Assembly: GCF_964204645.1 (NCBI RefSeq)
Contig: NC_134026.1
Coordinates: forward strand, 9,571,950-9,635,949
DNA: 64,000 bases
Direction of reading: 5' to 3'
From: Tubulanus polymorphus
Taxonomy: Eukaryota; Animalia; Nemertea
Below the pieces are notes generated by a model. That model was not told the origin of the DNA and did not search any database. It saw nothing but the letters and a program-made list of their open reading frames with translations. Positions 7,949-63,295 of the stretch are shown here, piece after piece (positions within the stretch are counted from its first letter, which is position 1; each line of letters opens with the position of its first letter). Position numbers and translations under genes: made by a program.

Positions 7949-8007
<59 letters not shown>
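7949..8007. repeat. (TA)n microsatellite directly abutting the left end of the recombinase element
   Basis: About 29 TA units. Confidence 0.95.
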
Positions 8008-8008
<1 letters not shown>

Positions 8009-8072
8009 TGAAAACATACTATTAACGGGGTTTGTGGGCTCAAACCCAATTGTGTGGTGCTATTTTAATACC

Positions 8073-8244
8073 CGTTTCTGGGGCATATATGTATAATTAT
8101 ATGCTAATGATATGCAAACCTCACAATTTATATAGGCCTATATGCCCCATGAATTATATACGTTTCTGGGGCATATATGTATAATTATATGCTAATGATA
8201 TGCAAACCTCACAATTTATATAGGCCTATATGCCCCATGAATTA
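8073..8244. repeat. Subterminal 88-bp direct duplication, each copy with ggggcatata...tatatgcccc inverted arms
   Basis: Near-identical copies start at 8073 and 8161. Confidence 0.85.
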
Positions 8245-9757: not shown

Positions 9758-12700
9758 TTATTTCGTTTTCTGCTTCTTCGAGATAATATTATGTAGCCTC
9801 GTTCGAACCTGAGGCAAAGTTCGGCTACCACCAAGTTCTTCAACTACTTTTCTCAAGTCTACTGCTGGTGCCATTCGCTTATTATTCAAATAGTTATGCA
9901 ATATCTTACAAAAAATATCTGTTTCTCCCTTTGTCCAGGGTGCCCTCTTAATACGTGACTTCTCATCTGAAACAAAATCATATAAAAATGCTACACAAAC
10001 CATTGCATCAAGACTACTGATAGGTTCTCACAATAGGCCCCATTTCCCCTAGGATTGTTATACCGTCCATAAGGTGGTTTAATCACTATGGACCCTATCC
10101 ATGAACTTACTTTGCGCTTCAGATTGGTTAGTTTCCATCTTTGGCGGAACTTCTGCATCGACCATGTCATTGTCATCACTGTCATCACTGTTTTCACTGT
10201 CTTCACACTCAGTCCACTTATCGGCATAATCCAAGGATAATGGGAGTGCTAAAACGTGTGAATAAATGCACATGTACACATACACACACACGGGTGACTG
10301 CTGTCATAGCAGAGAATACTAAAATATTTAATCTATCAGTAAAGTCAGACTTACCATCGGGATCAATATCCTCCAATGACTTTCCTTTGAATCTTGCCAT
10401 AATGCCATTTTCGGCAGCCAATAGCACCTTCGCTACCTTCGCTTTTTCAACGAGTGAAGATTGGAGGCAATATACATCTGCGTGAATTTTCACATCGTGC
10501 CCCATATGATCAGCCACCATCTTCAACTCGTTGGGCTTCATAGACAAAATCTGAAGTTATAAACCCAAATACTGGCTTTAGGGCTTTCATCCATTTCAAA
10601 TCACTTCACAATATAATTTCCATTCACAAGTATCATTATAGCCGATCATTGATTTATTATAATCATTGCTTGTTATGTCTTTCGAAGACCAGAGCTTTAC
10701 CTTCTTTATAGATATTCTTGATGAATGAAGGTTCTATTTTATATTCTTAAAAATTTCATTCACTAATACATACAGGGCTGGAAATTAGGCTTGTATGATA
10801 GTACATGTAAAAGCACTTCATGATAAGGTATGTCCTGATACGGATGTTTTAGGCCTATACAGGATCCGATATCAGCACTTGTCTATTATCACTTGTCATC
10901 CTTTTATGATAGGTTTTATATACTGGTTAACTGAATGTAGAATTGTGGGACATACATAAATAGGAAAAATCACTTCATGGTCAGGTAGTGTCTTGATATG
11001 ATGGGTTTTATATGTCACTTAACTGGATGTAGAATTGTGGGACATACATAAATAGACACTTCATAAATAGGTAGTGTTCTGATATGATGGGTTTAATATG
11101 CTATTTTACTGCATGTAGAATTGTAGGATATATATATAATGGGAAAATCCTTTCATGATCAAGTACTGTCTAGATGATTACATGACCTTAACGGTCACAT
11201 GCCCTCTTAATTTCAGTAAGTAATTAACCTAATGATTCTTTTGAATATAGATAACACCTGATATCAGGAAGACAGAAAAAAATCCCCCATATACATGTAG
11301 TCTTAAATTGTCAGGTTATTAATCAGGTAATATAAATATACAACATTTATAATTGTAATACTGTGGTTTGTATTTTAAAGAGGTTTGTAATGCTTGCAAT
11401 AAGACTAATCCTAGTTCATTGGTAAATGATAAACCTACTTGTAGTGTAGTTGCAAAGAAAGATCGGAGCTTCGTCGATCTAATTCGTTCAGGTGCATTCA
11501 GTCCGGGACACAATTTTGTCATTTCACGCATTGCAGTACAACCGTCAAGTGGTGTGTCAGCACGTTTCCTAAAATGAATGATGGATTTGCAATGCTTGCA
11601 CAAAACCTGTCACGATATGAACTAAAAAAGGTTCAGATTGTATTGCTTTGTAAAGTATATACTGTATACAAAGACATTTTTCTAAAAAATGGCTGCATGG
11701 CCTGGTAAGCACTAACTTATTTGATTATTCAGCATGTAGATGCCCACGAACAAAACCGTGTATATCAGTTGTGATGAGAGATTAAGATTTTTATCAGGAC
11801 TATTAATCAATTGACATTCAAAAAGGGAATGATTGTACCTTAATAATAATAAAATAAACCTTGCATTAATCGAATCCATTCAAGAAACATTCAAAATCCG
11901 TATTGCAATTGTTAATGGGTTAATGTTATTTGAATAGGAAAGTGCAAACACTGTATAAATCAGAAAATAGCATTCTTCCTAGAAAGACCCACATAGCTTT
12001 ATCTGTGAAACTTTACACTGACATTTCAGATAGACTTCTATCCATCTTCAGAGTTATATAAAAACTCTTCTAAATCGCTGAAGATGGATAGAAGTAAAAT
12101 CTATCCAAATTGTCAATGTCAACAGATATACGTTGTTGAATGTTCTTATTATACACGCTATATACACGTCTTTTATACACGTCTTTTATACATGCTAAAT
12201 AGAATGCCACAAGTCTAATTGATTTCAGAATTGATGTTACCTAGCAAAAATGAAGTCACTTGTACTTTGTCTGGTATCGAGGATATGTTCGATAGCTTTA
12301 ACCATCTTCTCAGTAAGCAGAATGTATACACCTCGAATACTGCGAGTGCTCTTCCCTCGGATTTCTATTACACGCATTCTACAAAAAACTCTCCAAAATC
12401 AACCCAACATATCTTGTAAATTAGATAAGAGCATATGACTAAGACAATTTTAAAACAACAATTACCGTTTGACCAAAAGCTGCTCAGCTAGAGACAGTGA
12501 TTGCAGGATCTCTTGATTCTGATCGGCATCCGGCACAATATTTTCGAAATCGCTCATGATCATTTCTTCCACTTCTGATATCCGCCTTCGGTTGAAAAGG
12601 ACTATACGGACAAGAACAGCATAAGCAAGATGTTTCCACTGTTTTGAAGTAGGCTCATGTATCATCAACGCTTTATCAATTTCAGAGTCGAGCCAATCTT

Positions 12701-15700
12701 TAAAGACTACTAAGTCATCTGCCACTGGATGTGTATTGCCTTGATTGAGTTTCCTAAGTTTAATCCTTCGATTAGCAACACACGAAACAGTATTGTTCCA
12801 ATGGGCCCGATAAACTACTTCGAAATCTCTTCCCTCTTCTTGCATAATTTTGTCTCCTTCAAAAATCCCCATGCTCATTTTGAGGACAATGCAATGTTTG
12901 ATGTAAATCCCCAAATTTATTGCCACACTCGGGGAATCTTTTTCCAAAGCTAACTTCTTAACACATTTGACTATCTGATGGAAATGTGGCCCTCTCAGGT
13001 ACGAGGAAAGCGATATCCAGTTTTCTTCGCCATTGTTCTCATTCAGGGCTTTCAGTAGCATACCGAGTAAACGGACCTTTGTTCTCAAGTTTGCTAGGTC
13101 TTTTCGGCGCTGCTCCTTTGCAGTGCCTAAACGCGAGTACAATGACAAAGCAAATTCACCAATTAATTCGTCTTTTTCGCAAATGCCAGGAATGCCAGGG
13201 TTTGCAACTGTTTCTCGCATTCTGCTGAATATCAAGTTTAATGCAACCGTATCCTCATCGATTCTTGGTACAAATGGTGATAGCATGTTTCGAGAGGTTC
13301 TTATGTAATTGATGTCTGGTTGTTTTGCCATTGGTTTGAAGTGGCAACGTGTCGCATGCTCGGAAAGGCATCCCTTGTAGAAAAAACCCTTACAAAATTC
13401 GCATGGTACGTAGTCCACTGCATTTGGTGGTTTATCCGTTTTATTGGGTCTACGGACAACGACCAACGTACCATGTCCTTCTTTTATCACTTTACAATTG
13501 TGCCGAAAGTTTCCTTCATTCTGAAGTAAGCGCATATGTTTTTTTTTTTCATTTGGATCGCGTATCAGATGGTACTTTATAATTTCTGGTTCAGACGCGT
13601 GAATACTGCACAAATGCGAGGATATTTTCGAAGTAAACACACGCTTACAATACAAACAATAATCTGCCTTTCGGTAGTCCCGCTTGCCATCTACTGACTG
13701 GTATGTCGGAACAGTAACATGTTTCAAATGAGCCGACAGTCTTGACAGATAATCTCCAAAGTCTTCTTCCTCAATATCGTTATCATTTGGATCAATTTCA
13801 TGGAGATTATCATCATCACTATCACATAGATCGTCATCAGGAATGTAATCATCTTCAGAATCTGATATACATTTTCTTTTTTTCCGCTTTTTTGGAATGT
13901 CAACATCAATTGACTGATCTTCAGAGTCAGATGAGTCAATTTGCCTTTTTTTCTTTATAATTGCATCCTGTTGTGAAGAGGTTCCAGCTTTCGGTTCAAA
14001 TACATCTTTTGGCAGTAAAGGGGCAAAATGATCCGGATTCCAGTGTCCAGGTTTAAGTTCTGAATGTGTAGTCCACATTACGAGTAAAGGTGCTTGCCTC
14101 AATGTGCCAGTCAAATTTTTTCTTGGATTTAATATATGGTTCATTATAGGCACACGATTATCCAATAACCCATTAACCGAGGGGTATACTGATCTTATCC
14201 TCCTATCAATAACTGTTGCGAGTGCCTGTATTGTCAGCATCGAAGAATAACTGTTGTGTATTGCACAAGCAATACATGCATCTGCGAAGGATGGTGAAAT
14301 CAAATCGAATCCAAATTCGATACTTCGAGTTTGATAGAAGTCAGAATTCTCAACCATTTCGATACAAGTGCGAACACGAAGTTCAGTTGCTAGATCTTCA
14401 CACCCACAAAGACCGACTGATACTGCATTGAACAAACAGTTACCATCACCAGATACATCTGCAGGCATGAGCACCCCATTTACCATATCACCACATTTCT
14501 GCATAATTTCTAATGACCTGCCATGTACCATCAGTTTTCTGTCCAAACACTTATACTCAAGTTCCCGTATCCTACTTGCAAAATAGCCAACAGTAGTTTT
14601 CAGATTCTCATAGCTTTTCTGTGCACTCAGAGTGAGCATCTTCAGAATGTTTGAGTAATCAATAGTGGTAGTAGCTGAAGATAAAATAAAAGACATCTAT
14701 CAAGTGTTAATGAATACCTAGGAAACTACCACCAAAATTTAACATGTTTGGTGTTGCAGATCTATTCTTATGAATTTAAATCAAATCTGGTAGACCTAGC
14801 CATTTTACATGTACCCAATTCAATACAATCAAAAGTCAATTTTCCGGCTTCTCAATAAAAATCTTGTCAAAGTTGTATCTAAATCCAATATCTAAAAAAC
14901 AAATATCCTACTGAACTGAATTTTTGACTTTTTGACCTCGTAGAAACTGTTGAATTAATATTCACATACATTGATAACATCTTTGCGTTATTTCATGTTA
15001 TTTTTGAAGGCATCATTGGACTACAAGTTTTTATCACTCTAACCTCTGTCTAACAATACTTCAATGTTCAATTCCTGCTGGTGCGAATACACAAACTATT
15101 TTCCATGAAAATCAATGAAATGACAGAAAATTTCATGTGCTTTTTCACTTTGCAATAGATAATAGGTACAAAACTGAATGGTTCCAAAGTAAATTTCAAA
15201 TTTCCAAAGTAAATTTCAATGTTCAAATTAATCCTAGTGGGGAGAACAATATCGGATAATTTCTATTCAACAAAACAAATTCAACATAAATAACAACAAC
15301 ATAAATAACAAGTTAAAATTGTTGGTACCCTCCTTAAAAAAAAAACCATTCCAACCATGAGCGAGGACTGGTGAGACTAAGATGACTCAAAATTTGCCTG
15401 ATCCAAACATATCTAAAGATCTAGAAATTGAGACTACAGATTACAGAGACTACTACAGAGACTACGCCATTTTCCTCTGATTGATCCAATTTTTCCAGTA
15501 GTAATAGGCTCTGGGCAGAGATACATATATTATATATACCAAACATCAAACAAGTTCTCCATGAAAACTTTTGTTGAACAAATGCTGTTGGTCACATATC
15601 TTGAATCTGATAAGACCAGTTTTTGAGCTGCAGTTGTCTCAAAAGTACTAGATACATGTATTAAGACAATCCTTTAAAATATCTCCAAAGCTTCCTAAAA

Positions 15701-18700
15701 TGCTTTGATTCTACCTATGGATGGACAATTGACACTAGAACGCAATATGCCTAATACAACTTTAGAACAAGATTTTTCAGTTAATGTGTAAGATTTTTCA
15801 GTTAATATGCACCTTTTTAAGGTAGATAAGATCATAACGTTCACTTACCGCAGGTTCCCTCCTTGTTTTCATAAAAAAATGGTAATTCTTCATCGCTATC
15901 ATAGTCATGTGGCAGAAAACCTAAATAGATTAGTTTCAATTATTTCAATTATCCATACTGGCATAATTTTTCGGCATTGACCCTCCCCCTTAGTATCTAC
16001 GTGTTAATGACACAAGCTATGCTCAACACTTTCAACGACCGAAGGATATTTTTTATGAAATAGGGAGTGTAAAGTAATATGGATTGCAATTTATTTTTAT
16101 ATCACAGTTTTTGATGCATTTTAGGACATGTCTTGTCCACAAAGTATGTGCTCCTTGAAAGACAAAAGTTCGTACAATGTGCTCTAATCCCCACCCACAA
16201 AAGAAGGGAAACCACTTTTACATGATTTCACTCTCTGAAGACCGATTGCATTTTGACTTTCTTCTCGCAAGGCATTATCTTGCAAGTCGATCGTTTTCCT
16301 TACACTCACAAAATATGAATGTTTAGGATGAACAAAAACCAGGTTTAAAGGTATAGTACACTTCAAATGTAACGTACTTATTATAGCTTGAGATATCGAA
16401 GATTCAAGTAATTCCTCGCCATCTGAAAATTCTAAAAGTAGAGAAAAGCCAAAACATCTCAAAAACTATTTGAAGAAAATATATATTTCAATTATCAGTG
16501 GGTAAGTAGTGTTAGCTAGTCCAATTTTGGGAATAAAACAAATTCCAAAGATAACTATATTGGCAGCTCATTGATGTTCAATCATTCAAATAGCTGATTA
16601 TTGGAAATGTGCATCTTGTGAATAATAAAGCTATGTAACTATCAGTAACTGCATAAATACGGTAGATATCATCGATACAGCTATTAAATTGTGAACAACT
16701 ATAACTGCTTATGCAAACAAGTGTTATCTTACCAGAACAGGTGGATTCAGAATCATTGTCAACATCACCAGAAGGGCCACATGTCAATGCATCATCTTGA
16801 AAAATAAATGATATGGTGACAATTATTGCTGCATGTTACAAGTTAAAGAATTATGCAATACGTTAATTTACCAGAGCAGGTAAATTCAGAAACTTTCTTT
16901 ATATCATCACATCAATACATTATCTTGAAAATCAAATGACAGATATAATGATACAGCAACCTGACAATTATTGCAACATAACATAAGTAAAGCATGCAAT
17001 GGTGATATAATGTATTAGATTATAATGTAACATAGAATTGTGATGCATAAAATTGTTCAAATTCTTCATGAACAGGAAAGGTCTATTTCAACTTGTTTGA
17101 AAAGGATATTGGGTTTGGGATAGTGTCCTGATATGGGATTTATATGCTGAATGTAGAATTGTAAGATATGCATAGGTAGTAAAATCACTTCATCATTAGG
17201 CAGTATCCAGATATTGTGGGTTTTATATGCCACCTAACTGAATGTAGAATTGTAGGACATATATGAATAGTAAAATCACTTCATCATTAGAGAGTGTCCC
17301 AATATGAAGGGTTTTATATGCCACCTAACTGAATGTAGAATTGTAGGACATATATAGACAGTAAAATCACTTCACAATTAGGTAGTGACCAGATATGATG
17401 GGTTATATATACTACTTAACCAAGTACAGAATTGTAGGACATACATAAATAGTAAAATTATTTAATGATTAGATAGTGTCCTGATGTGAATGGTTTTATA
17501 TGCCACTTAAGTAAATGGAGAATTGTAGGACATATGGTGAATCTTTTCTCATTAAGGTAGGATAGGTTTTATATGCCCCTTTACTAAATATAGAACTTTT
17601 AACACATATGAATAGAGAAATAGAGTTTATTTACCAGAAACTGTGAATTCAGAAATTTTCTTTTCACCAGAACACTCACGAATCAATGAAATATCTGTAA
17701 AATAAAATGACAGATACAATGATACAGCAACCTGTTGACCACTATTACTGCATTATACAAGCTAAAAAGTTACATAATGAGTAAACTTACCAGAACACGT
17801 GAATTCAGAAACTTGTTTTGAATCATCACTGGAACATTTACTCGTCAATACATTATCTAGAAAATCAAATGACGGATACAATGATACAGCAACCTGTTGA
17901 CCACTATTACTGCATTATACAAGCTAAAAAGTTACATAATGAGTAAACTTACCAGAACACGTGAATTCAGAAACTTGTTTTGAATCATCACTGGAACATT
18001 TACTCGTCAATTCATTATCTAGAAAATCTAATGACGGATACAATGATACAGCAACCTGATGACCACTTTTACTGCATTATTCAAGCTAAAACGTTACATA
18101 ATGAGTAAACTTACCAGAACACGTGAATTCAGAAACTTGTTTTGAATCATCACTGGAACATTTACTCGTCAATACATTATCTAGAAAATCAAATGACGGA
18201 TACAATGATACAGCAACCTGCTGACCACTATTACTGCATTATACAAGCTAAAAAGTTACATAATGAGTAAACTTACCAGAACACGTGAATTCAGAAACTT
18301 GTTTTGAATCATCACTGGAACATTTACTCGTCAATACATTATCTAGAAAATCAAATGACGGATACAATGATACAGCAACCTGTTGACCACTATTACTGCA
18401 TTATACAAGCTAAAAAGTTACATAATGAGTAAACTTACCAGAACACGTGAATTCAGAAACTTGTTTTGAATCATCACTGGAACATTTACTCGTCAATTCA
18501 TTATCTAGAAAATCTAATGACGGATACAATGATACAGCAACCTGTTGACCACTTTTACTGCATTATTCAAGCTAAAACGTTACATAATGAGTAAACTTAC
18601 CAGAACACGTGAATTCAGAAACTTGTTTTGAATCATCACTGGAACATTTACTCGTCAATACATTATCTAGAAAATCAAATGACGGATACAATGATACAGC

Positions 18701-21700
18701 AACCTGCTGACCACTATTACTGCATTATACAAGCTAAAAAGTTACATAATGAGTAAACTTACCAGAACACGTGAATTCAGAAACTTGTTTTGAATCATCA
18801 CTGGAACATTTACTCGTCAATACATTATCTAGAAAATCAAATGACGGATACAATGATACAGCAACCTGCTGACCACTATTACTGCATTATACAAGCTAAA
18901 AAGTTACATAATGAGTAAACTTACCAGAACACGTGAATTCAGAAACTTGTTTTGAATCATCACTGGAACATTTACTCGTCAATACATTATCTAGAAAATC
19001 AAATGACGGATACAATGATACAGCAACCTGTTGACCACTATTACTGCATTATACAAGCTAAAACGTTACATAATGAGTAAACTTACCAGAACACGTGAAT
19101 TCAGAAACTTGTTTTGAATCATCACTGGAACATTTACTCGTCAATACATTATCTAGAAAATCAAATGACGGATACAATGATACAGCAACCTGTTGACCAC
19201 TATTACTGCATTATACAAGCTAAAAAGTTACATAATGAGTAAACTTACCAGAACACGTGAATTCAGAAACTTGTTTTGAATCATCACTGGAACATTTACT
19301 CGTCAATACATTATCTAGAAAATCAAATGACGGATACAATGATACAGCAACCTGTTGACCACTATTACTGCATTATACAAGCTAAAAAGTTACATAATGA
19401 GTAAACTTACCAGAACACGTGAATTCAGAAACTTGTTTTGAATCATCACTGGAACATTTACTCGTCAATACATTATCTAGAAAATCAAATGACGGATACA
19501 ATGATACAGCAACCTGTTGACCACTATTACTGCATTATACAAGCTAAAAATTTACATAATGAGTAAACTTACCAGAACACGTGAATTCAGAAACTTGTTT
19601 TGAATCATCACTGGAACATTTACTCGTCAATACATTATCTAGAAAATCAAATGACAGATACAATGATACAGCAATCTGCTGCCAATTATTACTGCATTAT
19701 ACAAGCTTAAGTTATTTCATGAGTTTACTTACCAGAACAAGAATCATGATTTTTTTTTTCACCAGATTTGTGTTGACGAAAAGACTTGGAAGTCAATACA
19801 TTATCTTGAAAATGAAATTACAGGGTGTTAATACAATACCTAGAGTAGGTAATTTCCCAAAATATAGGCTTACATGTTGCCAGTAGACCATCTTGAATGT
19901 GATCCATGAAAATTACATGGTTTTATATCAACCTCATTTTGAGTGTGTCAAGAGAAAGTAAAAAATCGACAAAACATGTATGCCTGGTTACTGTCTTTTT
20001 TCCAATCCTACCGTTCAATTTGTAGGGAAAGAAATCAAATTACCTGCCAAGGGTAGAAATAGGAAAATTGCAAGGCGGGTTCAAAAAGTAAATACGAGGC
20101 ATTTTCGGTTAAAGCAGCCATATCAAATTCGTTAAGGGGGGTCCCTCCATCTAGGGTTAGATACACTTTTGAATAAATCAACCCTTAAAGATGAAATTTC
20201 TGAGATGTTAAATTTATAGGTTTAAGTTATCTCTGTACGAAGGGCAACTTCAAAGGGAAGGCACGAGTCTAGACCTTCGAGACCACCCGCTTGATACGCC
20301 CCTGCATGCATTTCAAAGATCATGTTTACTTCATGAGAATGGATTATTTCTAACATAAATAATAACCAATTTCATTGATGTTAAAAATATATTTTTATCA
20401 AACGATACATACTTAGACCATCAGGAAATTATAGCACTGTATAGTATTCACCTTAAAACAAAACATTTATCATGGTGGGTGGCCAATAGGACTGAACCTA
20501 AGTTTTTTTACACAAAGAATACATGCTTAACATTGCTCATTATCTAAAATATGCATTATGAGATAATTCAATGAAACAAAAGGGAACCATAAAAATTGAA
20601 AAGCATACAACAGATATATATATATAGAATATATATAAGGTTAGAATATATATAAGGTTAGGCCTATCACATGCAAAATGATTCAAATTCGTCTATTTCT
20701 GCTGTTCTGGTGGACGGCTCAACAAAGTATACCGGTAAATGTATAAACTGAGTTTATGGACATACAAATCTTATAGAGAAAAAGAGCAACATTTCTGAGG
20801 GGTGGATGCAAGCTGGATTTATATGTGCATAATAAAAGGCATAATTCAACTACCCGCCCTTGGTTGTGTTCCAACCTAATGCTTCTAAGCCAATACTGTA
20901 TCATTCACTTATACAAATTGGGTAATGATAGTTTATGGTCGTTGGTGTATCAAAATGAATCATCTACCATCATAGGGCATACCTATAAGAAGCAAGTTGC
21001 ATCTAACATAACCTATCTTATCTTCAAAGTCCAATGATATTTATTAACCGCAGAATTAACACATATTCCTGATAGACACCCTCAATTCAGATTCATGCAC
21101 AGTTATCACACACAGTACATGAAGAAAATCTCATGGCGCAAATGTAGCCTGTATACAGCAAGTTTTTATGTAAGCCATGAAATGCAAGGCAAATCTGAAA
21201 TTTACATTTGAATATGATAGACTCATTTTGCTTTTATTCTCCATGCTTAAACCAAATTCCATCTACATAGGCCTAATGACAATCGCAAGCTTCAGCATGC
21301 TGGGTGTACTTTGCAAGTTTGACTCAATCTAGAAAATTTTAATCCCAACAGGTTAACAAGCTTACCTGAGGCATTAAGTTCTTTTTTGTTAGAAGCCTAT
21401 TTATATGTTGAATACAAAAATAATTTTCCAGAATGGCATAATGGAAGCAGTGAAGAAATCAGCAAATAAGCAAATGTAGCTCATTCATGCAGCACAGAAA
21501 TACAATATGGTACCCAAATGCATCAGTAGAAACAAAGATACTACACGGCGTATCTATAGTACAATGATTAGTTGTAGAGGAACTTTTATCGTGATTAAGA
21601 AATTGATCAGTCGATGTTCTTAGGATCAGTACATACACACAGAGAAGGGTGAGGGGGTTTGAAAATTTGTATTAAAATGTCTATGGTTGTGTATGGGAGG

Positions 21701-24700
21701 GGGTTTGCATTTATAAACTGCTGTATGCACCATACTCCATGTAGTATGATCATTGATGTTGGACCATCGTAACTCATAACCAAAGTTTAATTTTTTCAAC
21801 ACCAGCATAAATCATTTACTGATAATTCATTAATAAAGACAAGCGTTACGAATCATAAACTGCTTTCTTCTCGGGACCCGCTGTCAAGGATAATTGGAGA
21901 TATTGAGGTTATGTTCACGATACTTTTTTTTCAATTGACAACTTCAGTCGTCATTCTGATAAAAATTACAAGCTTTGAACTTAGGGCTAATTCTTTGATG
22001 CACAAATGCTTGCATTAGAGGTTGTTACTATAAGGCACTAAAGCGTATACAAAAAGTATGGATGTATGGTGAAGGGGAGGGTAAGGTTCTAACTGAATGA
22101 GAGCTTCGCTGCAACAAAATTGGATGAAAATAAATCATCATAATTTACCTGTCTCCACCAATAATCAGTCACCCCGTAATCATACCGCAATTCTGTTTTG
22201 GGGGGTATGTCCTTAATAGCAAAAAATGCAATATGGGGCCTTCCTTCAGATATGACGGTTTTGGCTTTACAGTTTTCTTTGCCACCCCACCCATCATTGA
22301 TGAGCCGTCCCAAACTACCATCATCAATTGAGGCATCAATGCTGAAATGGTAAAAGTCATATTTAGAGTATTCAATTAGGCCTAATATACTTTAAGAAGA
22401 TGGGTGGTATCAAATTATGATACAGGCCTACAGGTAACAGTTAGGCTTTGAATGACTTATTTTAGTTAAAGTGTAAACTAAGTAGCCTGATGGGCAATAT
22501 CTGGTTAGAAAATCAATAGACCTACATACCACAGAGAACTGAACTTTTTGTCTTGAAATTCAAAGACATATGTATCGTCATCCCCGATTTCCTTCACATC
22601 ACGGAGTAGCCCACGATATTCCACCAAAAAATCCCCTCTACAAACTGCTTTCTTTGTGAATAATCCATATCCTTAATCAGAAAAAAGTATTATCTTTGAT
22701 TAAAAACCATTCCTTCAGGTCCTACATTAAAACCTAGGGTCCAGGGACACCATGCCCAGATGAGAAAAGGTTTGAAATGCTCAACCATCTGGAAATGTTA
22801 ATATTCAACGTCTGGTGAACTACAGAAACCATGACATAAATTTTGCATTGATTGTTTATTTATGTCTTTACTATGTATTGTGGTAACAAAATATGCCAAT
22901 GTATTAATAGGTATGATATGGAAATACTCAGTTTCTGCTATTAAGTCAAGGAAGCTACCGATATAGGTTTTTGAGGATTTCAGACTGAGATTTTTGAGCT
23001 ATATGGGCACCAAAAAGGTCACAGGACGGACTTCTTGTGTCTGATCAACTCAATTGTTTTAATGCTGATGGGCCCCTAGGCATTAAAAATATTATTTGAA
23101 AGATCAAGATAATTGAAGCGTCTTAAAAGATTTCCCTTGAAAACATCAAAATCTGTAAAAATGCTGATTTCGGCAAACAGAAATCTGCCATCTTGATTCT
23201 GACAGGACCAGTCTTTGGGCTGTAGGTGTTTCAGGGTAATATATGTATAAACCAAACATCAATCCATGTGTTTTCTAAACTTCCCAAAATAACTGGATTC
23301 TGTCTACGGACTGACACAACAGATATTCTATAAAAAAGTGGATATCATACAGATGCAGCAGTAATTTAGTAAACTAGTGGTCCAGGGACACCACGCCCAC
23401 TTGGGAAGTGGTTAGAAATGCTTAACAAACGGAATATTCAACGCCCCCTGGTGAACATATTAAGAAAGCAATGACCTTACAACTCACCACAATCAATGAT
23501 GGAACATGTCATGAGCTACAATTTTGTAATTGATTGTGGTTACAAAATATCCTTAGAGACCAATACAATATGAAAATACTAATATAATATAATAAAAGTT
23601 ATTTAGCTCTTCAATGCCCCTGGTGGCCTAGGGCCGATTCTTTTATGCAGTACGGATAATCCGGACGCTCCATTTCCATTCTTTTATTGATCAGGTGACT
23701 ATTTCTGGAGAGTTCGGAGAGTCCATTCTCTCCAATCTGTCGACCGGTGTGATTGCGGAGAGACCACGTGACAAAATGGCGACGCATGAATTTTGCCTCC
23801 TAAAACTCAGAAAAGTTACGGAAGCCGCCATTTTGATTCTCAACAACTATTCCATTATGCACAAATCAGGATATTCAATCCGGAGAATACGGACTGCATA
23901 AAAGAATCGGCCCCATAATCATAGAATATGTCACAAGATACAATTTTGCCATTCATTGTGGTTACCATACCAATGACCTTGAAACTCATACAAAATATCA
24001 ATAGGTACCAATTCTGTAATTCTGTATGTAATTCTATATTCAACTCTCCCTGGTGGTGAGAACAAAAACCCGGGTAACCCCAATTCCACGTGAGGAGATG
24101 AATACTATGACAGCGATACTATAGGCCTATATCAAATATCAAGACTATAAGTCAAAACTTGTCCATAGTTTCCTTCAAAAACCTTTTTCTGAGGACTGAT
24201 GACACGAAGATGGTCACTGATTGCATCACGCTTGACTGATCAAAGTATCTGTCTGATAGGCCTGTGTAAGAGCCCTTCTCATAGTATAACCAGATCTCGG
24301 AATTCAGGCCAAAAATGACCTTGGGCATAAAAAAGGTCACATGATGGCCATGTTAAGTCTGATCTACACAATTTTTCTTATGCTGATGCACCGGGGATAC
24401 AAACAGATGTGAATGATCAAGATAATTGATCAAAGGGTTTCAAAATTTCCCTTAATAACATCAAAAATATGTAAAAAGTGCTGATTTTGCTGAACAACAA
24501 TGGCAACCAGTCGGCCATCTTGATTCTGATCAGGCCAGTTTTCGGGCAGAAGATGTATCTAGATACATGTAAAAACTAAAGATCAAGACAATCCATTGAA
24601 GCGACTTCAAAACTTCCCAAAAGAACTTGATTCCGTCTATGGACAAACGGACGACAGATGAAAAGTGAACGCAATAGTCCACTGGGACTTAAGTCCCAAG

Positions 24701-24956
24701 TGGGCTAAAGATTATGTTGTCCTCATTATATATCAAAAACACTTCTCGGCCTATAGGCCTCATTAGGTTAAGGATAGGGTTGGGGTCTAGAAGGTCAGGA
24801 GGGTTAGGGTTTGATAGGGTTAAAACATTCCATTTAGGTATAATTTAGCCTACCTATTTCGCTATTGACAACTTTTTTTTCGAATGCCTCTTCTGGATCT
24901 TTGCCAAATTTAATAAATTCAAGAGCCACCTGACTTGGTGTCATGCGTCTCGGCAT
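9758..24956 (-). CDS. Multi-exon SET - OTU (vertnin-like) - zinc finger - tyrosine recombinase - Myb/SANT-like polyprotein, roughly 1500 aa, apparently intact
   Basis: Exons 24854-24956 (MPRRMTPSQVAL), ~22530-22671 (GYGLFTKKAVCRGDFLVEYRG), ~22149-22342 (IDAS..GRLIND..ELRYDYG), micro-exons ~21366-21396 to ~15849-15920, 12466-14674 (GDGNCLF..PDHFAPL; YCLYC..HLCSIH; VLFNRRRISEV), 12241-12378 (IEIRGK), 11439-11568 (IRSTKLRSFFAT), 10355-10550 (ADHMGHDVKIHADVY), 10111-10248 (acidic), 9758-9966 (RAPWTKGE..RTLPQVRTRLHN). The splice phases I checked are compatible and I found no stops. Confidence 0.85.
10800..11175 (-). repeat. Inverted, degenerate copies of the 91-bp satellite in an intron
   Basis: actgaatgtagaattgt(a/g)ggacata and gtcctgatatgatgggttt are reverse complements of the 27180-30080 unit. 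Confidence 0.7.
17115..17600 (-). repeat. Inverted copies of the 91-bp satellite in an intron
   Basis: About 5 units of gaatgtagaattgtaggacata...agtaaaatcacttca. Confidence 0.75.
17695..19810 (-). repeat. 162-bp tandem array, 12 near-identical units, each holding a 66-nt phase-1/phase-1 exon
   Basis: cagaacacgtgaattc every 162 bp from 17791 to 19573; minus strand ttttctag|AT AAT GTA...TGT TCT G|gtaagt encodes DNVLTSKCSSDDSKQVSEFTCS. Confidence 0.9.
22735..24710. repeat. Fragments of a non-autonomous Helentron/HINE-like interspersed repeat in a SET-domain intron
   Basis: Repeated ggtccagggacacca(t/c)gccca, gccatcttgattctga, caagataattga and a terminal agtcccaagtgggctaaa shared with 790-998. 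Confidence 0.45.
23631..23913. mobile_element. MITE with GGGCCGATTCTTTTATGCAGT terminal inverted repeats (PIF/Harbinger-like ends)
   Basis: gggccgattcttttatgcagt at 23631 and actgcataaaagaatcggccc ending at 23913. Confidence 0.75.
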
Positions 24957-27179
24957 CTCACCTGAAAAATACAACCAAGAATAAGGTGCTATGATAATGG
25001 GCAGGCTTATTTGTATCTTTGCCCTATTAACCGAGATATTAATACTGCAAATTGGGCAGAACACAAATCCTCACCTTGAAACATAAAAAAAATAAAAAAG
25101 AATTAAGCGATTGATTTTTGCAAAAAAAAAACCATTTAGACCAACGGCCACGTCACTGCATATCATATCAATAGCAGTAGCACTTGATATAAATTACAAA
25201 AATTGGCTGTCAAAAATATACAATAAAGAAAAAATTCATTGTGCAACACCGGTGCTTAGTTCCAAGCTTCAAGGCCTAAATATGCTAGAATTCTGTATCA
25301 CTATAGGCCTACTACTAGGGGGCCTAAATAAGTGAAACTAATTAGTAAGCAGGCATGGCTATAGGCCGGTCCATGTCCTACAATGAACCTGTAACAATGA
25401 CAGGTTGGTACCGGTATTTGGATTATAATCTAGGCTGATTCAGCAGGTTAGCTGTAGCCTACTGTGCAGTGGTAAAAGTATCAGCCTGTAGCGCGGAATA
25501 TCAGTCAGCACATCAGGTTTGGTTTCTATGATGATCGGACTGTTTTACAAACCACGACAATTCCTATACCGGTAGGTATTTGTAGGCCTATTTGTATATA
25601 CTCTAGGGCCTCTCTAAGTTCTGGATATTATCAACGTTGGCAGTAAAAGTACAAATTACAAGCCTATCTGAGATGACTCGGTCAAGACTAGAGATAGGGC
25701 CTAATACTACTAGTAAGGTCAGATGTAGTCTAGTACCTAGCCGTTGTTTTCCAAACAGGTTGTAGGTAGGGAACCGTAACAACAACTGTTGAACAGCAGT
25801 TGTTACAGTCTGTTCAGACTAGTACTAGGTCAGATGGTATTCAGGCCATCAGGGATTAGCTGGGAGGAGGCCTTTATTTTATTAGATAATAGCTTACCAC
25901 CAACCGATTACTAAATACTAACAAGGACAGGTTACTCACATCCAATGTGCTAGTGCTGGTGTACTATAGGCCTATAAGTATAGTTGAATGTGTGTGTAAA
26001 TGAATTTAGCGTTTTCTGCAATCCTGATTAGAAATGCGGTACAATGTATGTCAATATAAGAAATTTTGTAGCCAGAATTTTAATGAAACGGGCGTAAATG
26101 TAGTAATGAAAATATTGCACGTCCACCGGTTGTTTACAACGCAGCAACGACCTTCAACGTAGTCTGAATACCGGTCGTTGTTACCGGTTCCCTAGAACGA
26201 CGGCTAGGTACTAGACTACCTTCAACGCAGCAACGAACTAACCGGTAGCCCTAAATACCGAACAAAACCGTTAAATACCGACTTTATGTCACTAATCAAT
26301 TTTAGATGCGGGCATAAGGCTAATTTATTTTCGTGTGAAATCGATCTTTTTGGGATATTTCGCTTAACTTTTTGAACACATACCCTAAATTGGTCTTAAC
26401 GACCAGTGTACGGTAACTGTGCAGCCTGAATAAATCCTCGTTTTATAGCCATTTTAGACTGTATTGAATTATTGCCAAAGGGTTTTCATTTTCTCGTGTC
26501 GAAAACAGAAAAGATCAGCCATTTTTTGAAATTCTAAGATGTTTCTTGTGTTTCCGTGCCTACGAACCATGATTTTCTTTGAATAATTTGCAAACATTTT
26601 CAAATGGCAAGGGCCTAGGCATAGAAAAATATTGTTAAAATTGATTTACGTAACGGTAGTTCATTAAATGGGGTCTATTTTCTCTAATTGAAATGAGTTA
26701 AAGAAGACTTTTTTTTAGTAATCCTCCAATGCAAAACAGTTTAAAATGGATAAAACGATGATTTACTTACAGTTTCACTGGTCGTATTAAGACCTAATTG
26801 AGGTACCCGGTATGTGTTGAAAAGTTTAGTTTATAGGGAACTCAAAAAATCGATGTCAGACCAAAAAAAAATTAGAATTTAGGAACGGACATGCAGATAT
26901 GTCAGGCATACACTGCTAGTCTATTCACTTTTGTGTTTCATCAGTTTTCTCGAGATAATTTGTAACTTTTGTGAGCAAATACTTCAAACTAATGCCATTC
27001 AAGCCAGAACTGTGCAGTCGGACATCGTTTTTGTATCCATCTTAAACACTGTATTGAAGGATTGTTAAAAAGTCTTCTTAAACTTATTTATGACAGAGAA
27101 AAGAGACTTCACGAATCGCACCGGTTCTTGAAAGATCATAATTACATCAGGGCAATATCTAATCTTGCATTGATTGTAC

Positions 27180-30080
27180 TAGTCATGTCCTACAATTCTA
27201 CATTCAGTTATGTGGCATATAAAACCCATCATATCTGGACACTACCTAATCATAAAATGATTTTACTATTTATGTCTATTACTACATATGTCCTACAATT
27301 CTATATATACAATTCTATATCGCTGGCATATAAAACCCTTCATATTGGCACATTTCGTAATGATGAAGTGATTTTACTATTTTTATATGTCCTACAAATC
27401 TATAATTAGTTAGGCAGCATAGAAAACTCGACTCGTAAGAAACTACCTACGGTAATCATAAAGCATTTTACTATTTATATATGTCTTACAATACTGCATC
27501 AGCTAAGTGCAGTACAAATTTATATTCAGTTAGGTGGCATATAAAACTATCATATCAGGGCGCTATTTGTGGATGTCTTACAATTCTACATTCAGTTGCG
27601 TGGCATATAAACCCACGGCATCAGGACACTGCCTGATAATTTTACTATTCGTATATTTCCTACAAATCTACATACATTTTAAGTGGCGTATAAAACCATT
27701 CATATTAGGACAATGGACACTCTCTAATTATGAAGTGATTTTACTATTTATATATGTCCTACAATTCTACCTTCAGTTAAGTGGCATATAAAACCCTTTA
27801 TATTGGGACACTCTCTAATGATGAAGTGATTTTACTATTTATATATGTCCTACAATTCTACCTTCAGTTAAGTGGAATATAAAACCCTTTATATTGGGAC
27901 ACTCTCTAATTATGAAGTGATTTTACTATTCATATATGTCCTACAATTCTACATTCAGTTAAGTGGCATATAAAACCCTTTATATTGGGACACTCTCTAA
28001 TGATGAAGTGATTTTACTATTTATATATGTCCTACAATTCTACCTTCAGTTAAGTGGCATATAAAGCCCTTTATATTGGGACACTCTCTAATGATGAAGT
28101 GATTTTACTATTTATATATGTCCTACAATTCTACCTTCAGTTAAGTGGAATATAAAACCCTTTATATTGGGACACTCTCTAATGATGAAGTGATTTTACT
28201 ATTTATATATGTCCTACAATTCTACCTTCAGTTAAGTGGAATATAAAACCCTTTATATTGGGACACTCTAATTATGAAGTGATTTTACTATTTATGTATG
28301 CCCTACAATTCTTTAATCAGTTTCGCAACATATAGAACTCATCATCAAATTTATATTCATTTAGGGGGTATTTAAAACTATTCATGTCAGGACACTACCG
28401 AATCCTGAAATGATTTTACTATTTGTGTAGGTCCTACAATTGTACATGATCAGTTGCGTGGCATATAAAACCTACGGCATCAGGACACTGCCTAATGATT
28501 TTACTATTCGTACATGTCCTACAAATCTACATACATTTTAAGTGGCGTATAAAACCATTCATATTAGGACAATGGATAATCATGCCATTATTTTACTATT
28601 TGATTATGTCCTGCAATTCTACATCCAATTAAGTGGCACATATATCGGGACACTGCCTAATCGTGAAGTGATTTCACTATTTATATATGTCTTACAATTC
28701 TACATCCAGTTAAATGTCATATGAAAAAAATCGTTCATACCTATTGGGACACTCTCTAATTATGAAGTGATTTTACTATTCGTATATGTCCTACAATTCT
28801 ACATACATTTAAGTTGCGTATAAAACCATTAGTGTCAGGACACTAGATAATCATGGCGTTATTTCACTATTTAAATATGCCCTGCAATTCTACATTCAAG
28901 TAAGTGGCATATAAAAACATTAAAATCCGGACACTACCCAATCATGCAGTAATATTATTTATCAAAAATCCATAGGAGCAAAAACAATACAAATCTCATT
29001 TTCTAATGAGTAATATATATTTATTATAGTAAACGTTTTCGGGAGTTACATTATCCCCTCTTCAGGCATAGCGCGCAAGTGATTAAATTTTCATATAATA
29101 CGTTTTTAGATAATTAACTACTAGTCAAATATATTCACTCAGTAATTTAGATTGTGTATAATTAATTATCTTTATATTGTAATCATCTTGTCACTCAGTT
29201 AATTGAAATTGTTTGTAATTAGCTTCGTCCTATTCTATATAAATACCAGTATGATATGAACATTTAATCACTTGCGCGCTATGCCTGAAGAGGGGATAAT
29301 GTTACTCCGGAAAACGTTCGCTACAATAAATATATATTACTCATTACAAAATGCGATTTGTATGGTTTTTGCTCCTATGGATTTTTAATTATCTTGACCC
29401 TCTACCTAAGAACTAATATTATTTATATATGTCCTGTAATTCTACATTACGCTGCGTGGCATACAAAAGCATATCAGGACACTGCCTAATCATGAAATGA
29501 TTTTACTATTCATATATGTCCTACAAATTTACATACATTTAAGTGGCGTATAAAAACCCTTCGTATCAGCCCACTAGATAATCGCGACGTTATTTTACTA
29601 TTCATTATGTCCCGCAATTCTACATTCAGTAAAGTGGCATATAAAACCCACCATATCTGGACACTCCCTAATGATGAAGTGATTTTACTATTTATATATG
29701 TCCTACAATTCTACATGCAGTAAAATAGCATATAAAACCCATCATATCACACACTACCTAATTATGAAGTGATTTTACTAATTGTATCTACACATCTACA
29801 TTCAGTTTATTGGCATATAAAACTATTCATATCTGGACACTACCTAATCATAGAGTTATTATAATATTCATATTACACACTACCTAATTATGAAGTGATT
29901 TTACTAATTGTATCTACACATCTACATTCAGTTTATTGGCATATAAAACTATTCATATCTGGACACTACCTAGTCACAGAGTTATTATAATATTCATGTC
30001 CCCCAATTATGCATTCATTTAAGTGGCATATAAAATCAATTATATCAAGACACTACGTAATCATGACGTGATTTTACTAC
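27180..30080 (+). repeat. 91-bp satellite array, homogeneous core with degenerate flanks
   Basis: gaagtgattttacta at 27732, 27823, 27914, 28005 and onward. Confidence 0.9.
28964..29386. mobile_element. Foldback/MITE with ~125-bp inverted arms inserted in the satellite
   Basis: aaaaatccataggagcaaaaac...cttcaggcatagcgcgcaagtgattaaa mirrored at ~29263-29386. Confidence 0.8.
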
Positions 30081-31771
30081 AGTCAATCTTGGTGTTTGCC
30101 TATCACTCAGGACTCGGCTTTTTAGTATAGATTAGGTGATGTACGGATACAAGATAACCCATAGTTCTACTAATGAATTATCAACCATATAAACTGATTT
30201 AAGTGCATAACCAGTACAATAGCCGGTTTACAGATGTTTAGATTGTCTACGTAAACTCTTGAACTTAAACTACTATCACACTTGAAAGCAATACGAAATA
30301 CCAGCCATCATTAAATGGAGAAGCTTTAGACTTAGACATTGAGCGATTACTTCTAAGTTACTCATATTTCCCACTGACCTCAATTACTAAATTAGTTGTT
30401 AATATTCTTTTCACTACAGATGTAGGTCTACGTTCCCGACAACTGATACGGGTTACATACATAGTCTAACATAGAAATGGAGAATGGGTCTACGAATTAT
30501 TGAGTACAAATTAGACACACATTATAATGATAAAGCGGGGATGGCATAGCCGAGGTTGACTGTATTCTATTTGTTCCCTGGTACTAACTACAGATAAGGA
30601 AAAAACCTTCCTATCTGAATACTGCCTGATAACAAAATGATTTTCATGATTATGCAATATGGCCTACAATTCTATTAAGCATATCAAGCGTATTTGTTTG
30701 TATCATTAAATATCCCATAAATGGTTTCTGACAATGACAACTACTTTTGAGTTTATCAAGTCGGCAAACCATGGTTTTGATGATTTCAAAATATCAATGC
30801 AATACATACTTCGGACAATAAACAGTAATGATACACTTGTATTGATCTAATCAAAGAATGAAGTCCATCTCTATTCGATTTACATAAAAAAGAATTCCTT
30901 CAATGCAGTGTATGTAAAACGAATAAAGAATCGACGGTTAAGTTCAAAGCACGTGCTGGTCGTTTTAAGGCATGTACCTCTAAAGCAGAGTACATAATGG
31001 TACCCTTCGTCCATTTAAAAAAGTTGAAATATACTGCATTTGGCCTATGGATAAATGTCTCCAATGATGTTACATGTAAAAAGGACATGCAAGATCGGCA
31101 AACTAATAAAGAAAGCTTACCTTTTTCCTTTTTGGCTAGGCTTAGACTCAATGTTCTCGCATCACCGCGAATAGTAACTGGACATGCGCATTGACCTATC
31201 GGTCGAGTTCATTGTTTGCTGTAGGAGATGAACCCTACCGAACCTCGAAGCAAAGGATTATTTTAATTGCCCAATGAATTTCATATGAACAATGTGTTGA
31301 GAACACGCGTTTTTGGAAAAAAATATATCTTAATGTTCTTGAAGATTCTTGCAGTTTGTAAGTGTAAATCATATACACACTACACAGCCGTACACCCTGC
31401 TCTGCTCTGTATGGGCTCTCCCGAACTTCCGGAGTTCTGCCAGGTGATGGTTTCTCCTAACTTCTGACGTAGAAAAAGGGGCGGAGCTTATCTGTTCTAA
31501 CCGTCAGATGGGGCTGCTGTATTGCTTTATATATAAATATCTTTGTCAGACCCGATTACGCCTACGACTGCAAGTGGGTGATTGAACAATTTTCTGAGCG
31601 TTTGCAAGGTGTAACAATTACGGGACACTTTGTATGCCCCGTAATTTTTCACCACCCCGCAACAAGGAAATTAAAAAGACAAACGCCCCGTTAATCGTAC
31701 ATTATCTTAGTATATATATACACATATCAGTAAAACTGCATGTGGTTTATTAAACTTTCATACAATAACAA

Positions 31772-33679: not shown

Positions 33680-35967
33680 TTGTGTATGCCATTATTTCAT
33701 CATTTTCTTTTTCTCAATCAGATTATACATTTTACTTTTAATTACTAGCCAGTTTCTGTTTTGTAAGCAAGGAGCCAGCCTCTTGCATTGATCTATTTGG
33801 TGCCTTTTAGGCACAACTAAAGTCCGTAAATTTGTAGCTAAATGCTTTTCTAAAGCAGCAATTTCAACGTCTGACCAAGGCTGACGATTCGTCACCGATT
33901 TTCTCTTTTTTGCATCATTCTTTCCGCATTTCTTTGATATATCTCCAGTCGTGGATGATACTACAATATAAAAAGACCAATTAGCAGACAAAATTAAAGA
34001 GGCAGCTAACAAAGAAATTAAAAGCATGAGGCACAAGTGTTGGGGTGATCAGTTTGCACATGTGTAATAAACCAATGTGAAGGCTTTAGCTCTCAAAAGA
34101 TTGTGCATTCAAAGCTTACATGATGCATTGGTATTTCGTCTCATGAAGAAGAAATTTAAAGGAATACTTAATCATAACCTTTTTCTGTAACCTATAAACA
34201 AAGTCAGAAATTTGCATGCTATATAATATACGCACCATTAACTTCTCGCTTTCTTTTTGCGGCAAGACCAGCAGATTTTGGAACTGTAATGAAATATTAT
34301 CACAGCTTAGTAAAATGTTGCAAGAGCAATCATATATTGATTCTAAATAATTTGACTCTAAAGAGTGCATGCAACCATTTCTGGATCAAGAGTTCACATG
34401 ACAGAGTTCAATCGGCTTATTTATAGATTAACAACAAATGATGTCAACTATTTCCTGTCACCGTGATCAACAAAAAATCTCCCAATATACCCAAGGCTAT
34501 AGGCTAAAATAAAAATGTTATTATTGAAAAAAATCTAAGCAGTATGCTTCACATTTCCAGCTTGGACTAAAAATAAGTCTGAAATGTAAACATTATGTGG
34601 CTAAAGTGACGATAAAGTTATCATAAACCTAGCTTGAAATTTCAATGAAGTTTATTTATGTACATACCTGACTGTGATATCAACACTTTCCACACGGAAC
34701 ATAGATTTTAGAAGATGTTTCTCAAACTTAGATAAAGTTTCATACATTTCATCATCAACATTTTTAGTTTTTCCACCCTTTTGGTAATCGGAAATAGTTA
34801 ATCTGGAGATCTCTCCCTGTCTTCTTTTGTTGAACGACATTACCTCAGCTAATGTTCCAGTAGCAAGATTTGTCCAGTTTGTCGATATTTTCATCATTTT
34901 TCATCTTCAGGTAATCATGAAATCGTTTAACATCTTTCGTTAAGGGTAAAAGCTTTGGCTTGTTGAATTTTTTCAGCCGTACAGTTCTCAGAGCACAACT
35001 TGAGATTTTTGTGTGTCAATCACAAGTACTCAATTTACCAAAATCTTTCGCACGTTTTCTTAATTCTGAGTCACCTGTTCTTAATGCCTGGCCAGAAAGA
35101 ATTTCAGCACATCGATTTAGGTTATGGCCCAAATCTAGCGCTAGTGAAGGTAAACCAAATGAGCCATTTTCATATCTAGATACTTGCCGAACAGCAACTA
35201 CAACTGTGTCAAACTTTCTAGGATCTATGGCATCACCCAAACATTGAATATCAGGGCGCATAACATCCACAAGTCTAGCTAACTGGCGCATTTTTTTTTT
35301 AATGTTGGCATACTGATGCTTCTGACCTTTGCAGCGTTCAAATTTTTTGGTTCCGAATTCCAAAATAAGCGGGTCATTTTTCACAATTAGGCTCAACCGA
35401 TCAGGGTGTAATCTTCCCAATATGTCGTTTTTGAAATCATCATTCAATTCAGTAGCTTTGGAAGGCAAAAGTAAGGCTGACTTGCTTTGGACTCGTCCTC
35501 GGGACCCTGATTCTGAAGAGATACAGGTTTTTTTGTGCCGCCAAAGAACTTTCCGATAATAAAGATTCAGACAGTTATCACAAAGCAAGTAATCATCAGC
35601 GCAGGTGACTTCTGTCGGCCTCTTCTTCGCAACGATAACACCTTCACCTGCTTTTAAAACGTCACAATTGTGGTTGAAATCCCCTTTTGCTCTTAGCGTA
35701 TCAATTAAATCATTTCTCTCCTTTGACTTTTTTGGTAAAGTTAAAATTCTCTGAATTTCAATTTCTGCGCCATGATCACTATACCAATGACGTGGCACCT
35801 TCGAGTAACCTTTCCCACAAAAAACACAAAAATGTTTTTTAGCTCCTTCACTAGTTGATGATGCAACATATATTTTCTGATCACTGCCAGCAGGAACACA
35901 CTTCTGAGAGTTTCCTAGATGAATGAAAAATAGTCATTGCATCGTTTAAATAGACTATAAAGGTAAT

Positions 35968-36265
35968 CAAACCGAGGACATATGTATATCTGATGTGTAA
36001 ACATGTGGAATAAATTTGGCAATCAAACTGAGGACATATGTATATCTGATGTGTAAACATGTGGAATAATTTTGGCAATCAAACGGAGGACATATGTATA
36101 TCTGATGTGCAAACATGTGGAATAATTTTGGCAATCAAACTGAGGACATATGTATATCTGATGTCTAAACATGTGGAATCATTTTGGCGATCAAACTGAG
36201 GACATGTATATCTGATGTCTAAACATATGGAATCATTTTAGCGATCAAACTGAGGACATATGTCT
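35968..36265. repeat. 56-bp tandem repeat, ~5 copies, intronic
   Basis: gaggacatatgtatatctgatgt at 35974, 36030, 36086 and 36142. Confidence 0.85.
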
Positions 36266-47530: not shown

Positions 47531-47579
47531 GATATAGTGTTTTATCAATCGTGATATCGGTTCTTTCCACTGTATTAAA

Positions 47580-55650: not shown

Positions 55651-55651
55651 T

Positions 55652-63290: not shown

Positions 63291-63295
63291 TGTAT

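Follow-up and report, generated by a model that had tools for sequence, protein, structure and literature searches.

A probable Crypton-like tyrosine recombinase transposon of Tubulanus polymorphus with a predicted SET-OTU-recombinase fusion protein

Can one spliced animal protein join a DNA-moving recombinase to a SET methyltransferase domain and an OTU protease domain, and is its gene mobile? The question is raised by a 64,000-nucleotide stretch of the nemertean Tubulanus polymorphus (contig NC_134026.1, positions 9,571,950 to 9,635,949 of the forward strand; hereafter the window), in which a first-pass annotation, made from the letters alone, had proposed a mobile tyrosine recombinase (YR) carrying its own chromatin writer and eraser. 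Our analysis indicates that the locus is probably a recently active YR DNA transposon of about 23.7 kb, which lies in (TA)n and has one gene, predicted to encode a SET-OTU-zinc finger-recombinase-helix-turn-helix protein. The element itself, with its ends and TA flanks, was absent from the first reading.

On the minus strand, from an ATG at 24956 to a stop codon at 9758, 27 exons, all bordered by AG and GT, join into 4,602 nt that encode 1,533 amino acids (aa) with no internal stop. All motifs named in the annotation were found at their places on this strand, and the exons join in one stop-free predicted frame, as it had claimed. The predicted protein runs in the order SET (aa 1-148), low-complexity repeats, OTU (591-752), two zinc fingers, core-binding domain, YR catalytic domain, acidic tract and three-helix tail, and is laid out in the window as follows.

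25075..31121, minus strand: likely 5' untranslated exons and introns, with strong donors at 25075 and (by eye) 31121
24854..24961, minus strand: SET exon 1, with the ATG at 24956; the start agrees with the starts of fish homologues
22530..22671, minus strand: SET exon 2 (GYG, EYRG)
22149..22341, minus strand: SET exon 3 (IDA, RLIND, ELRYDYG)
21366..21396, minus strand: putative 31-nt bridge exon, phase 0 to 1, from SET to the remainder; best of five candidates
17791..19804, minus strand: 162-bp tandem array with twelve 66-nt phase 1-1 mini-exons
19804-19733, minus strand: 72-nt variant exon at the array
15849..17694, minus strand: four phase 1-1 low-complexity exons (17694-17635, 16795-16733, 16431-16378 and 15920-15849), used in RefSeq copies
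12466..14674, minus strand: 2,209-nt exon, from OTU (aa 591-752; C607, H743) through an acidic/basic linker, a C2H2 finger (C867-H886), a C2HC finger (C952-C971) and the core-binding domain (about aa 1024-1169) to the start of the catalytic domain (R1225)
12241..12378, minus strand: YR exon with RGK (K1273)
11439..11568, minus strand: YR exon with STKLR (T1342 at the His position, R1345)
10355..10550, minus strand: YR exon with MGH (H1371) and the nucleophile Y1380
10111..10248, minus strand: acidic linker exon, also present in the RefSeq proteins P0001 and P0020
9758..9966, minus strand: last exon, with the three-helix homeodomain/Myb-like domain (aa 1469-1533) and the stop codon

In the array, the columns of the mini-exons vary less than those of the introns (1/66 exon against 11/96 intron columns, Fisher p=0.028).

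The recombinase assignment was examined by profile and by fold. The Pfam family Phage_integrase scored 29 and 31.7 bits on the near-identical RefSeq proteins P0001 and P0020 (cut-off 27.1). In a fold model of the C-terminal 407 aa (mean pLDDT 70.5), residues 46-283 matched XerA and XerH (Z 11.8, root-mean-square deviation (rmsd) 3.5-3.7, 174 residues aligned), and also topoisomerase IB, Cre and Flp; Foldseek gave no match to the catalytic model at E≤0.001, and the XerA and XerH matches came from a wider structural aligner. The structure check that the annotation had proposed for the recombinase exons thus returned a YR fold. What it had called a helical region proved to be an integrase core-binding domain, the model of which (pLDDT 82.8) matched Brujita integrase (Z 8.8, rmsd 2.7, 100 residues aligned) and lambda Int (Z 8.1); these Z scores are moderate for a helical domain, and the top five rows were all recombinase-family proteins. 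At the level of predicted structure, the YR fold and the identity of the core-binding domain are therefore confirmed. The "complete YR set" of the annotation holds for R1225, K1273, R1345, H1371 and Y1380, but the His of H-x-x-R is replaced by T1342. Among 150 relatives, the first Arg was kept in 142, Lys in 142, Thr in 132, the second Arg in 147, His in 148 and Tyr in 147, so Thr in H-x-x-R is a family trait rather than damage. The tail had been read as Myb/SANT-like: model residues 343-407 matched homeodomains (Z 8.7) and a telomere-repeat-binding protein (Z 8.0), but Myb_DNA-binding stayed below its Pfam cut-off (16.8 vs 24.4).

That SET, OTU and YR belong to one polypeptide is likely, and we hold this with good confidence. 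The exon junctions from the array to the tail agree with RefSeq models of near-identical copies, which bears out that part of the splicing claimed earlier; the link to SET, however, needs the 31-nt bridge exon that the annotation had not named, and the frame stops at aa 150 when it is left out. This exon has the strongest donor of its intron. Several points weigh against the single chain: the exon chain is a prediction from the DNA; the acceptor of the bridge exon is weak; an equally good exon was found in 4/12 control stretches; and SET is present in 0/7 RefSeq models of the near-identical Tubulanus copies. The last of these points also favors an alternative in which the element has two transcription units, one for a short SET-only protein and the other for an OTU-YR-Myb protein as modelled in RefSeq, as do an open frame from SET exon 3 on to a stop at 22089, AATAAA at 21238 and 21045, and a bridge exon that is itself only deduced. 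We nevertheless consider this arrangement improbable. The start common to four RefSeq models is likely an artefact of gene prediction, since a 163-nt GT-AG pseudo-intron within the array reproduces it. Moreover, the first 155 aa of the window protein match fish aa 1-161 (35% identity, E 1e-24), and the N-terminus also matches the N-termini of sea-cucumber and poison-frog SET-YR proteins; because these homologues have SET and YR in one chain, the link between SET and the rest is supported. A divergent second copy in the window (copy 2, described below) has a candidate bridge exon in the same place (41594-41579), and one contig of run X1 crosses the end of the array together with SET exons 3 and 2, its depth equalling that of the rest of the stretch. 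Runs X1-X3 behaved as DNA; the one possible RNA run matched a single repeat fragment, which has no bearing on expression.

In the SET domain of the single-chain protein, one exon alone scored 34.2 bits in Pfam (cut-off 22.4), and the closest solved structure was SETD8 (E 7e-6 with one exon, 5e-26 with a fish homologue). The annotated resemblance to SETD8 holds for the EYRG and YDYG (YxY) motifs, but not for the cofactor-binding motif RxxNH, which reads RLIND, so that N-D replaces the N-H of SETD8. This replacement speaks against an active enzyme; it was found in 73/74 fetched sequences matching the motif, many of them isoforms. The YDYG tyrosines, which we take to be the catalytic and switch tyrosines of SET, as we also assume the roles of EYxG and RxxNH, are conserved across distant family members. 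From its motifs, the domain is rather likely to be catalytically active. SETD8 monomethylates lysine 20 of histone H4 (H4K20me1), and we give somewhat less than an even chance to H4K20 as the substrate here.

The OTU domain, which had been reported as intact, indeed scored 27 bits in Pfam from its single exon (cut-off 23.3) and retains the catalytic pair C607/H743; across 16 aligned sequences the Cys is nearly invariant and the His invariant. Its nearest solved structures, all weakly similar, were A20 (E 0.009), OTUD1 and Cezanne. On this sequence evidence, we lean moderately towards an active deubiquitinase. Most of the 24 other OTU matches were unnamed proteins, in many of which MULE, Mutator, Helitron or DUF4371 domains accompany the OTU, and the OTU here is 37-48% identical to its closest transposon-type relatives. 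Copy 2 carries its OTU on a phase 1-1 exon of its own (37945-37271) among phase 1-1 repeat exons, which makes it plausible that the phase-1 array is a landing slot for shuffled modules. Copies 1 and 2 are 25% identical in the recombinase region and 49% in OTU. We infer that OTU likely arrived by exon shuffling, on a phase 1-1 exon drawn from the MULE/Helitron transposon pool, and that it likely moved between co-resident lineages.

Where the element ends is indicated by two (TA)n runs and short inverted motifs beside them, which place it, in likelihood, at 8008-31710.

7950..8007, unstranded: (TA)29 microsatellite, left flank and likely target site (Tandem Repeats Finder and TA-run list)
8008..8092, plus strand: left end; ATTAACGGGG (8021-8030) lies 13 nt inward of the TA run and GGGGCATA (8080-8087) 72 nt inward
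31626..31710, minus strand: right end; ATTAACGGGG (31686-31695) lies 15 nt inward of the TA run and GGGGCATA (31633-31640) 70 nt inward
31711..31720, unstranded: (TA)5, right flank (TA-run list)

The right-end motifs are inverted relative to the left end, and both ends adjoin (TA)n as a direct repeat of open length, with two short inverted motifs and no classical terminal inverted repeat. Exact ATTAACGGGG occurs twice in the whole window, once at each element end beside the TA run; with one mismatch it is at chance level (3 found vs 2.8 expected), so that only the exact matches and their placement are informative. Three further copies of GGGGCATA lie in an 88-bp doublet reaching 8236. The end motif contains TAACGG and ATTA, which we take, as a lead only, to be Myb and homeodomain cores. 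Among 896 TA-run flank pairs the element-end pair ranks 5th, and the four pairs above it lie in a 91-bp satellite family or in the hairpin near position 29 kb. This satellite occurs inside the element at 10874-11175, 17147-17543 and 27139-30079, in both orientations; its last block and the hairpin (28961-29389) fall in the likely 5' untranslated region, where by eye no second gene was recognised at 25075-31121. The X1 contigs run across 19626-31727 at a depth of about 190-245, and the last one aligns as far as 31727, apart from two mismatches and nine letters left unaligned, as would be expected if (TA)n runs on uninterrupted beyond 31710 in most copies; an X2 contig stops at 31701. The lower depth of 93.7 at 33354 is too weak to use. 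Four results count against these boundaries: a high-copy repeat starts shortly beyond 31727 and could equally end the contigs there; the left end is supported by this window alone; an end-anchored scan placed the right end only 3rd of 42,080 scanned segments; and one other locus (9648) passed the shared-motif test. A long degenerate end pattern gave no match. Between 8008 and 31710, no reverse transcriptase, DDE transposase or further long open reading frame (ORF) was seen in the ORF lists, which were read by eye, with short ORFs outside the Pfam scan.

Seven RefSeq proteins of T. polymorphus, gathered in one cluster with the long exon as query, lie on five chromosome-sized contigs (11.5-32.1 Mb) and differ from the window protein by 0-4 aa outside the repeats; two pairs that share contigs resemble split copies. 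Near-identical copies on five contigs indicate a very recent spread of the gene. With the element ends and the five catalytic residues kept in 142-148 of the 150 relatives, these copies uphold the earlier suggestion of a mobile recombinase, and we regard the locus as very likely a mobile element.

Could the gene instead be passive cargo of a larger mobile or duplicated block, together with a SAM-HECT gene, copy 2 and zinc-finger genes? The HECT-like gene and copy 2 do flank the element on the same strand.

33692..43884, minus strand: copy 2, a divergent, broken SET-repeats-OTU-Zn-YR-Myb gene outside the element

The TA-flanked inverted end motifs, however, enclose the intact copy alone, its recombinase is intact, and a query with the OTU of copy 2 gave no named Tubulanus cluster for copy 2 (proteins of 427-2000 aa), all of which makes the cargo explanation very unlikely. 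The reading frame of copy 2 is broken by a stop and a frameshift (near 35016 and 34880), and no second half of its catalytic domain was found. Its SET reads QHRG in place of EYRG and retains N-H. It has its own 434-bp tandem exon array at 39410-40613 and a possible right end at the TA run 44305-44312, where a shared 9-mer beside the run may be due to chance.

How widespread is this design? A search with the recombinase part gave 3,395 clusters at E≤0.001, 1,577 at 1e-10 and 272 at 1e-30, and the family entries are mostly labelled "uncharacterized". SET and YR occur in one protein in 12/19 matches (three fish species), and single uncharacterised SET+YR proteins are also present in a sea cucumber and poison frogs; the annotation had allowed that similar uncharacterised proteins might be in databases, and the SET-YR fusion is indeed not special to this locus. 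The best 150 representatives include 14 with SET and two with OTU (P0001 and P0213), the OTU of P0213 being only 26% identical to that of the window. Many representatives are fragments; 43 have at least 200 residues ahead of the fingers, and 13 of those have SET. It tells against the proposed fusion that SET and OTU occur together in none of these 150, and that the database entries of most examined relatives are without SET or without OTU, so that neither domain appears essential; the combination was seen only in this window, in both copies there. We conclude that the SET-YR core is a widespread, unannotated family trait. In other members the N-terminal slot is taken by BRCT, chromo, C1-like or OTU domains; a scan of 30 long members showed BRCT (two members), chromo, C1-like and ATF7IP-binding domains. 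Dispersed, near-identical multi-copy relatives were found in Lineus, plaice, grass carp, Brienomyrus and three poison-frog genera, and the grass-carp isoforms retain SET, their lengths differing by multiples of 26 aa. An 18-row tree places the window copy together with Tegillarca and Lottia (100/100) and outside the fish-type clade. The SET-YR proteins of the three poison-frog genera fall in one 90% cluster (P0160), a likeness in sequence that suggests recent activity or horizontal spread.

The fish relatives bear on whether the Tubulanus gene is a domesticated host chromatin gene, like their ZMYM4-fused version or vertnin (VRTN). A search for long proteins (2149-5000 aa) gave 23 matches, 18 of which (P0078-P0092 and P0094-P0096, from 17 fish species) have one or two SET-Zn-YR cassettes before a ZMYM4-like protein (zf-FCS, DUF3504). 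In 16 aligned ZMYM4-like fusions, the first catalytic Arg is absent from 31/31 YR domains, whereas the SET motifs are kept in those checked, indicating that SET is kept for a function of its own, at least in the fish fusion. Judged by its domains, this fusion appears to be one YR-element domestication stacked on another. In P0074-P0077 (seadragon and pipefish), two or three SET-Zn-YR units stand in tandem with decayed catalytic motifs. The 27 exons of the window gene and the domestication of its family in fish would suit a domesticated gene, but the catalytic residues lost in the fish gene are intact here, the near-identical copies are dispersed and some apparently split, and the ends are retained; we therefore find domestication of the window copy scarcely credible.

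For the transposon, the following mechanism is proposed. By analogy with Cryptons and integrases, the subterminal motifs would be bound by the zinc fingers and the C-terminal helix-turn-helix, much as integrases bind arm sites, and the core-binding and catalytic domains would carry out recombination between the two (TA)n-flanked ends, freeing a circle that is then inserted in another (TA)n tract. The crossover would likely fall inside (TA)n, which would explain the TA runs at both flanks. More speculatively, SET might monomethylate H4K20 on donor or target nucleosomes, and OTU might deubiquitinate the recombinase-DNA intermediate or the chromatin around it, which would spare it degradation or silencing by the host. 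YRs form a covalent tyrosine-DNA intermediate, and hosts remove such intermediates by ubiquitin-dependent routes; an OTU in cis would most simply protect that intermediate. Alternatively, the element might be real, with SET and OTU acting only as a tether between the recombinase and nucleosomes or ubiquitin, as readers that lack catalysis or can be dispensed with. N-D for N-H in 73/74 motif matches, QHRG for EYRG in copy 2, and the BRCT, chromo and C1-like domains that fill the slot in other members all point that way, but the SET YDYG tyrosines and the OTU Cys and His are conserved across distant members, and we consider the tethering role rather unlikely.

The element works like a Crypton. 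Cryptons have YR as their only mobilising enzyme, a proposed circular intermediate and a record of repeated domestication (Kojima and Jurka 2011, PMC3212892). Their ends lack terminal inverted repeats and carry 4-6 bp direct repeats. Those of this element adjoin (TA)n and have two short inverted motifs. Some oomycete Cryptons carry a C48 peptidase as a separate protein, and the animal Crypton A and I groups are described as having neither a C-terminal domain nor terminal repeats (PMC3212892). Unlike the protein studied here, Crypton A, F, I and S are not mentioned as having SET, OTU or Myb domains in the available part of that paper. No match to PF12012 (DUF3504), the CryptonA feature, was found on P0001 or P0020 at E≤0.05, against 212 bits on the ZMYM4 part of P0078; nor was there a match to GCR1_C of CryptonF, the element tail being homeodomain/Myb-like. 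By these profile searches, the element is neither CryptonA nor CryptonF. CryptonV comprises animal YR DNA transposons, some families of which are reported to insert specifically in microsatellites (PMC8869645), and this copy likewise sits in a microsatellite, with (TA)29 and (TA)5 flanks. Likened by description only, CryptonV is the likely home of the element, and SET may already be recorded there; the available part of PMC13465315 does not mention CryptonV.

Closest in design are the RefSeq SET-Zn-YR-Myb proteins of Brienomyrus (XP_048853094), Ctenopharyngodon (XP_051734581) and Pleuronectes (XP_053301945), and those of Apostichopus and poison frogs, which share the domain order, tandem-repeat linker, N-D SET motif, T-x-L-R YR motif and multi-copy state, but differ in having no OTU and only about 30% identity. 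Helentrons carry OTU and sometimes SET as separate ORFs, the SET being likened to Clr4 (PMC4067079). Like OTU-bearing MULE transposases, they have an OTU with intact catalytic residues, as here; they and MULEs move, however, by HUH or DDE enzymes rather than YR, and the SET here is SETD8-like, not Clr4-like. The host enzymes SETD8/KMT5A and A20/Cezanne have no recombinase, and the window OTU is only weakly similar to A20 and Cezanne. Vertnin, compared by description, has an OTU-like domain that lacks the catalytic residues (PMC10318531), in contrast to the intact pair here. In the parts of the literature available to us, no SET-YR or SET-OTU-YR transposon was found described, although the supplements of PMC3212892 and PMC13465315 may list relatives; a survey of zebrafish SET proteins, as far as available, does not mention an integrase or recombinase (PMC2200798).

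A broader picture can be offered tentatively, as possible but somewhat doubtful: animal-wide, microsatellite-targeting recombinase transposons might carry a built-in chromatin toolkit, with an N-terminal, active, SETD8-like writer of H4K20 and a phase-1 slot that swaps OTU, BRCT and chromo modules, this copy combining writer and deubiquitinase, while in spiny-rayed fish the writer cassette would have been domesticated by fusion to a ZMYM4-like gene. Should the accessory domains prove active, the mobilising enzyme itself would write a histone mark and remove ubiquitin, making it testable how animal DNA transposons handle chromatin and the clearing of protein-DNA intermediates by the host. A copy that is intact, recently amplified and defined at its ends could serve Crypton-type excision and integration assays in animals and might yield a (TA)n-targeted integrase, and the family (1,577 clusters at E≤1e-10) appears to be the source of a conserved double-SET ZMYM4-like gene in many fish. 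On the other side, a SET-YR design may already be described as CryptonV in Repbase, and Helentrons are known to carry SET and OTU as cargo.

Other features lie outside the element. A spliced gene at 945-4650 (minus strand) has a SAM domain (weak Pfam match) and HECT-like motifs (by eye); this SAM-HECT gene, on the same strand as copy 2, is possibly part of an older, larger unit. Between it and the (TA)29 run, a GC-rich 154-bp tandem repeat with palindromic subunits occupies 6344-7143. Two multi-C2H2 zinc-finger ORFs lie on the plus strand at 45752-50425, one of them split by a stop at 46727-46729. An ORF at 48082-48456 (minus strand), taken by eye as RAG1-like, was rejected, its Pfam match being zf-AD. 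Fragments of long terminal repeat retrotransposons, Gypsy-like and BEL-like by eye, were seen at 54335-59585 (minus strand), and a Mutator/FLYWCH-like transposase fragment (by eye; no Pfam match) at 62674-63443 adjoins TA runs and a (TACCCG)n array.

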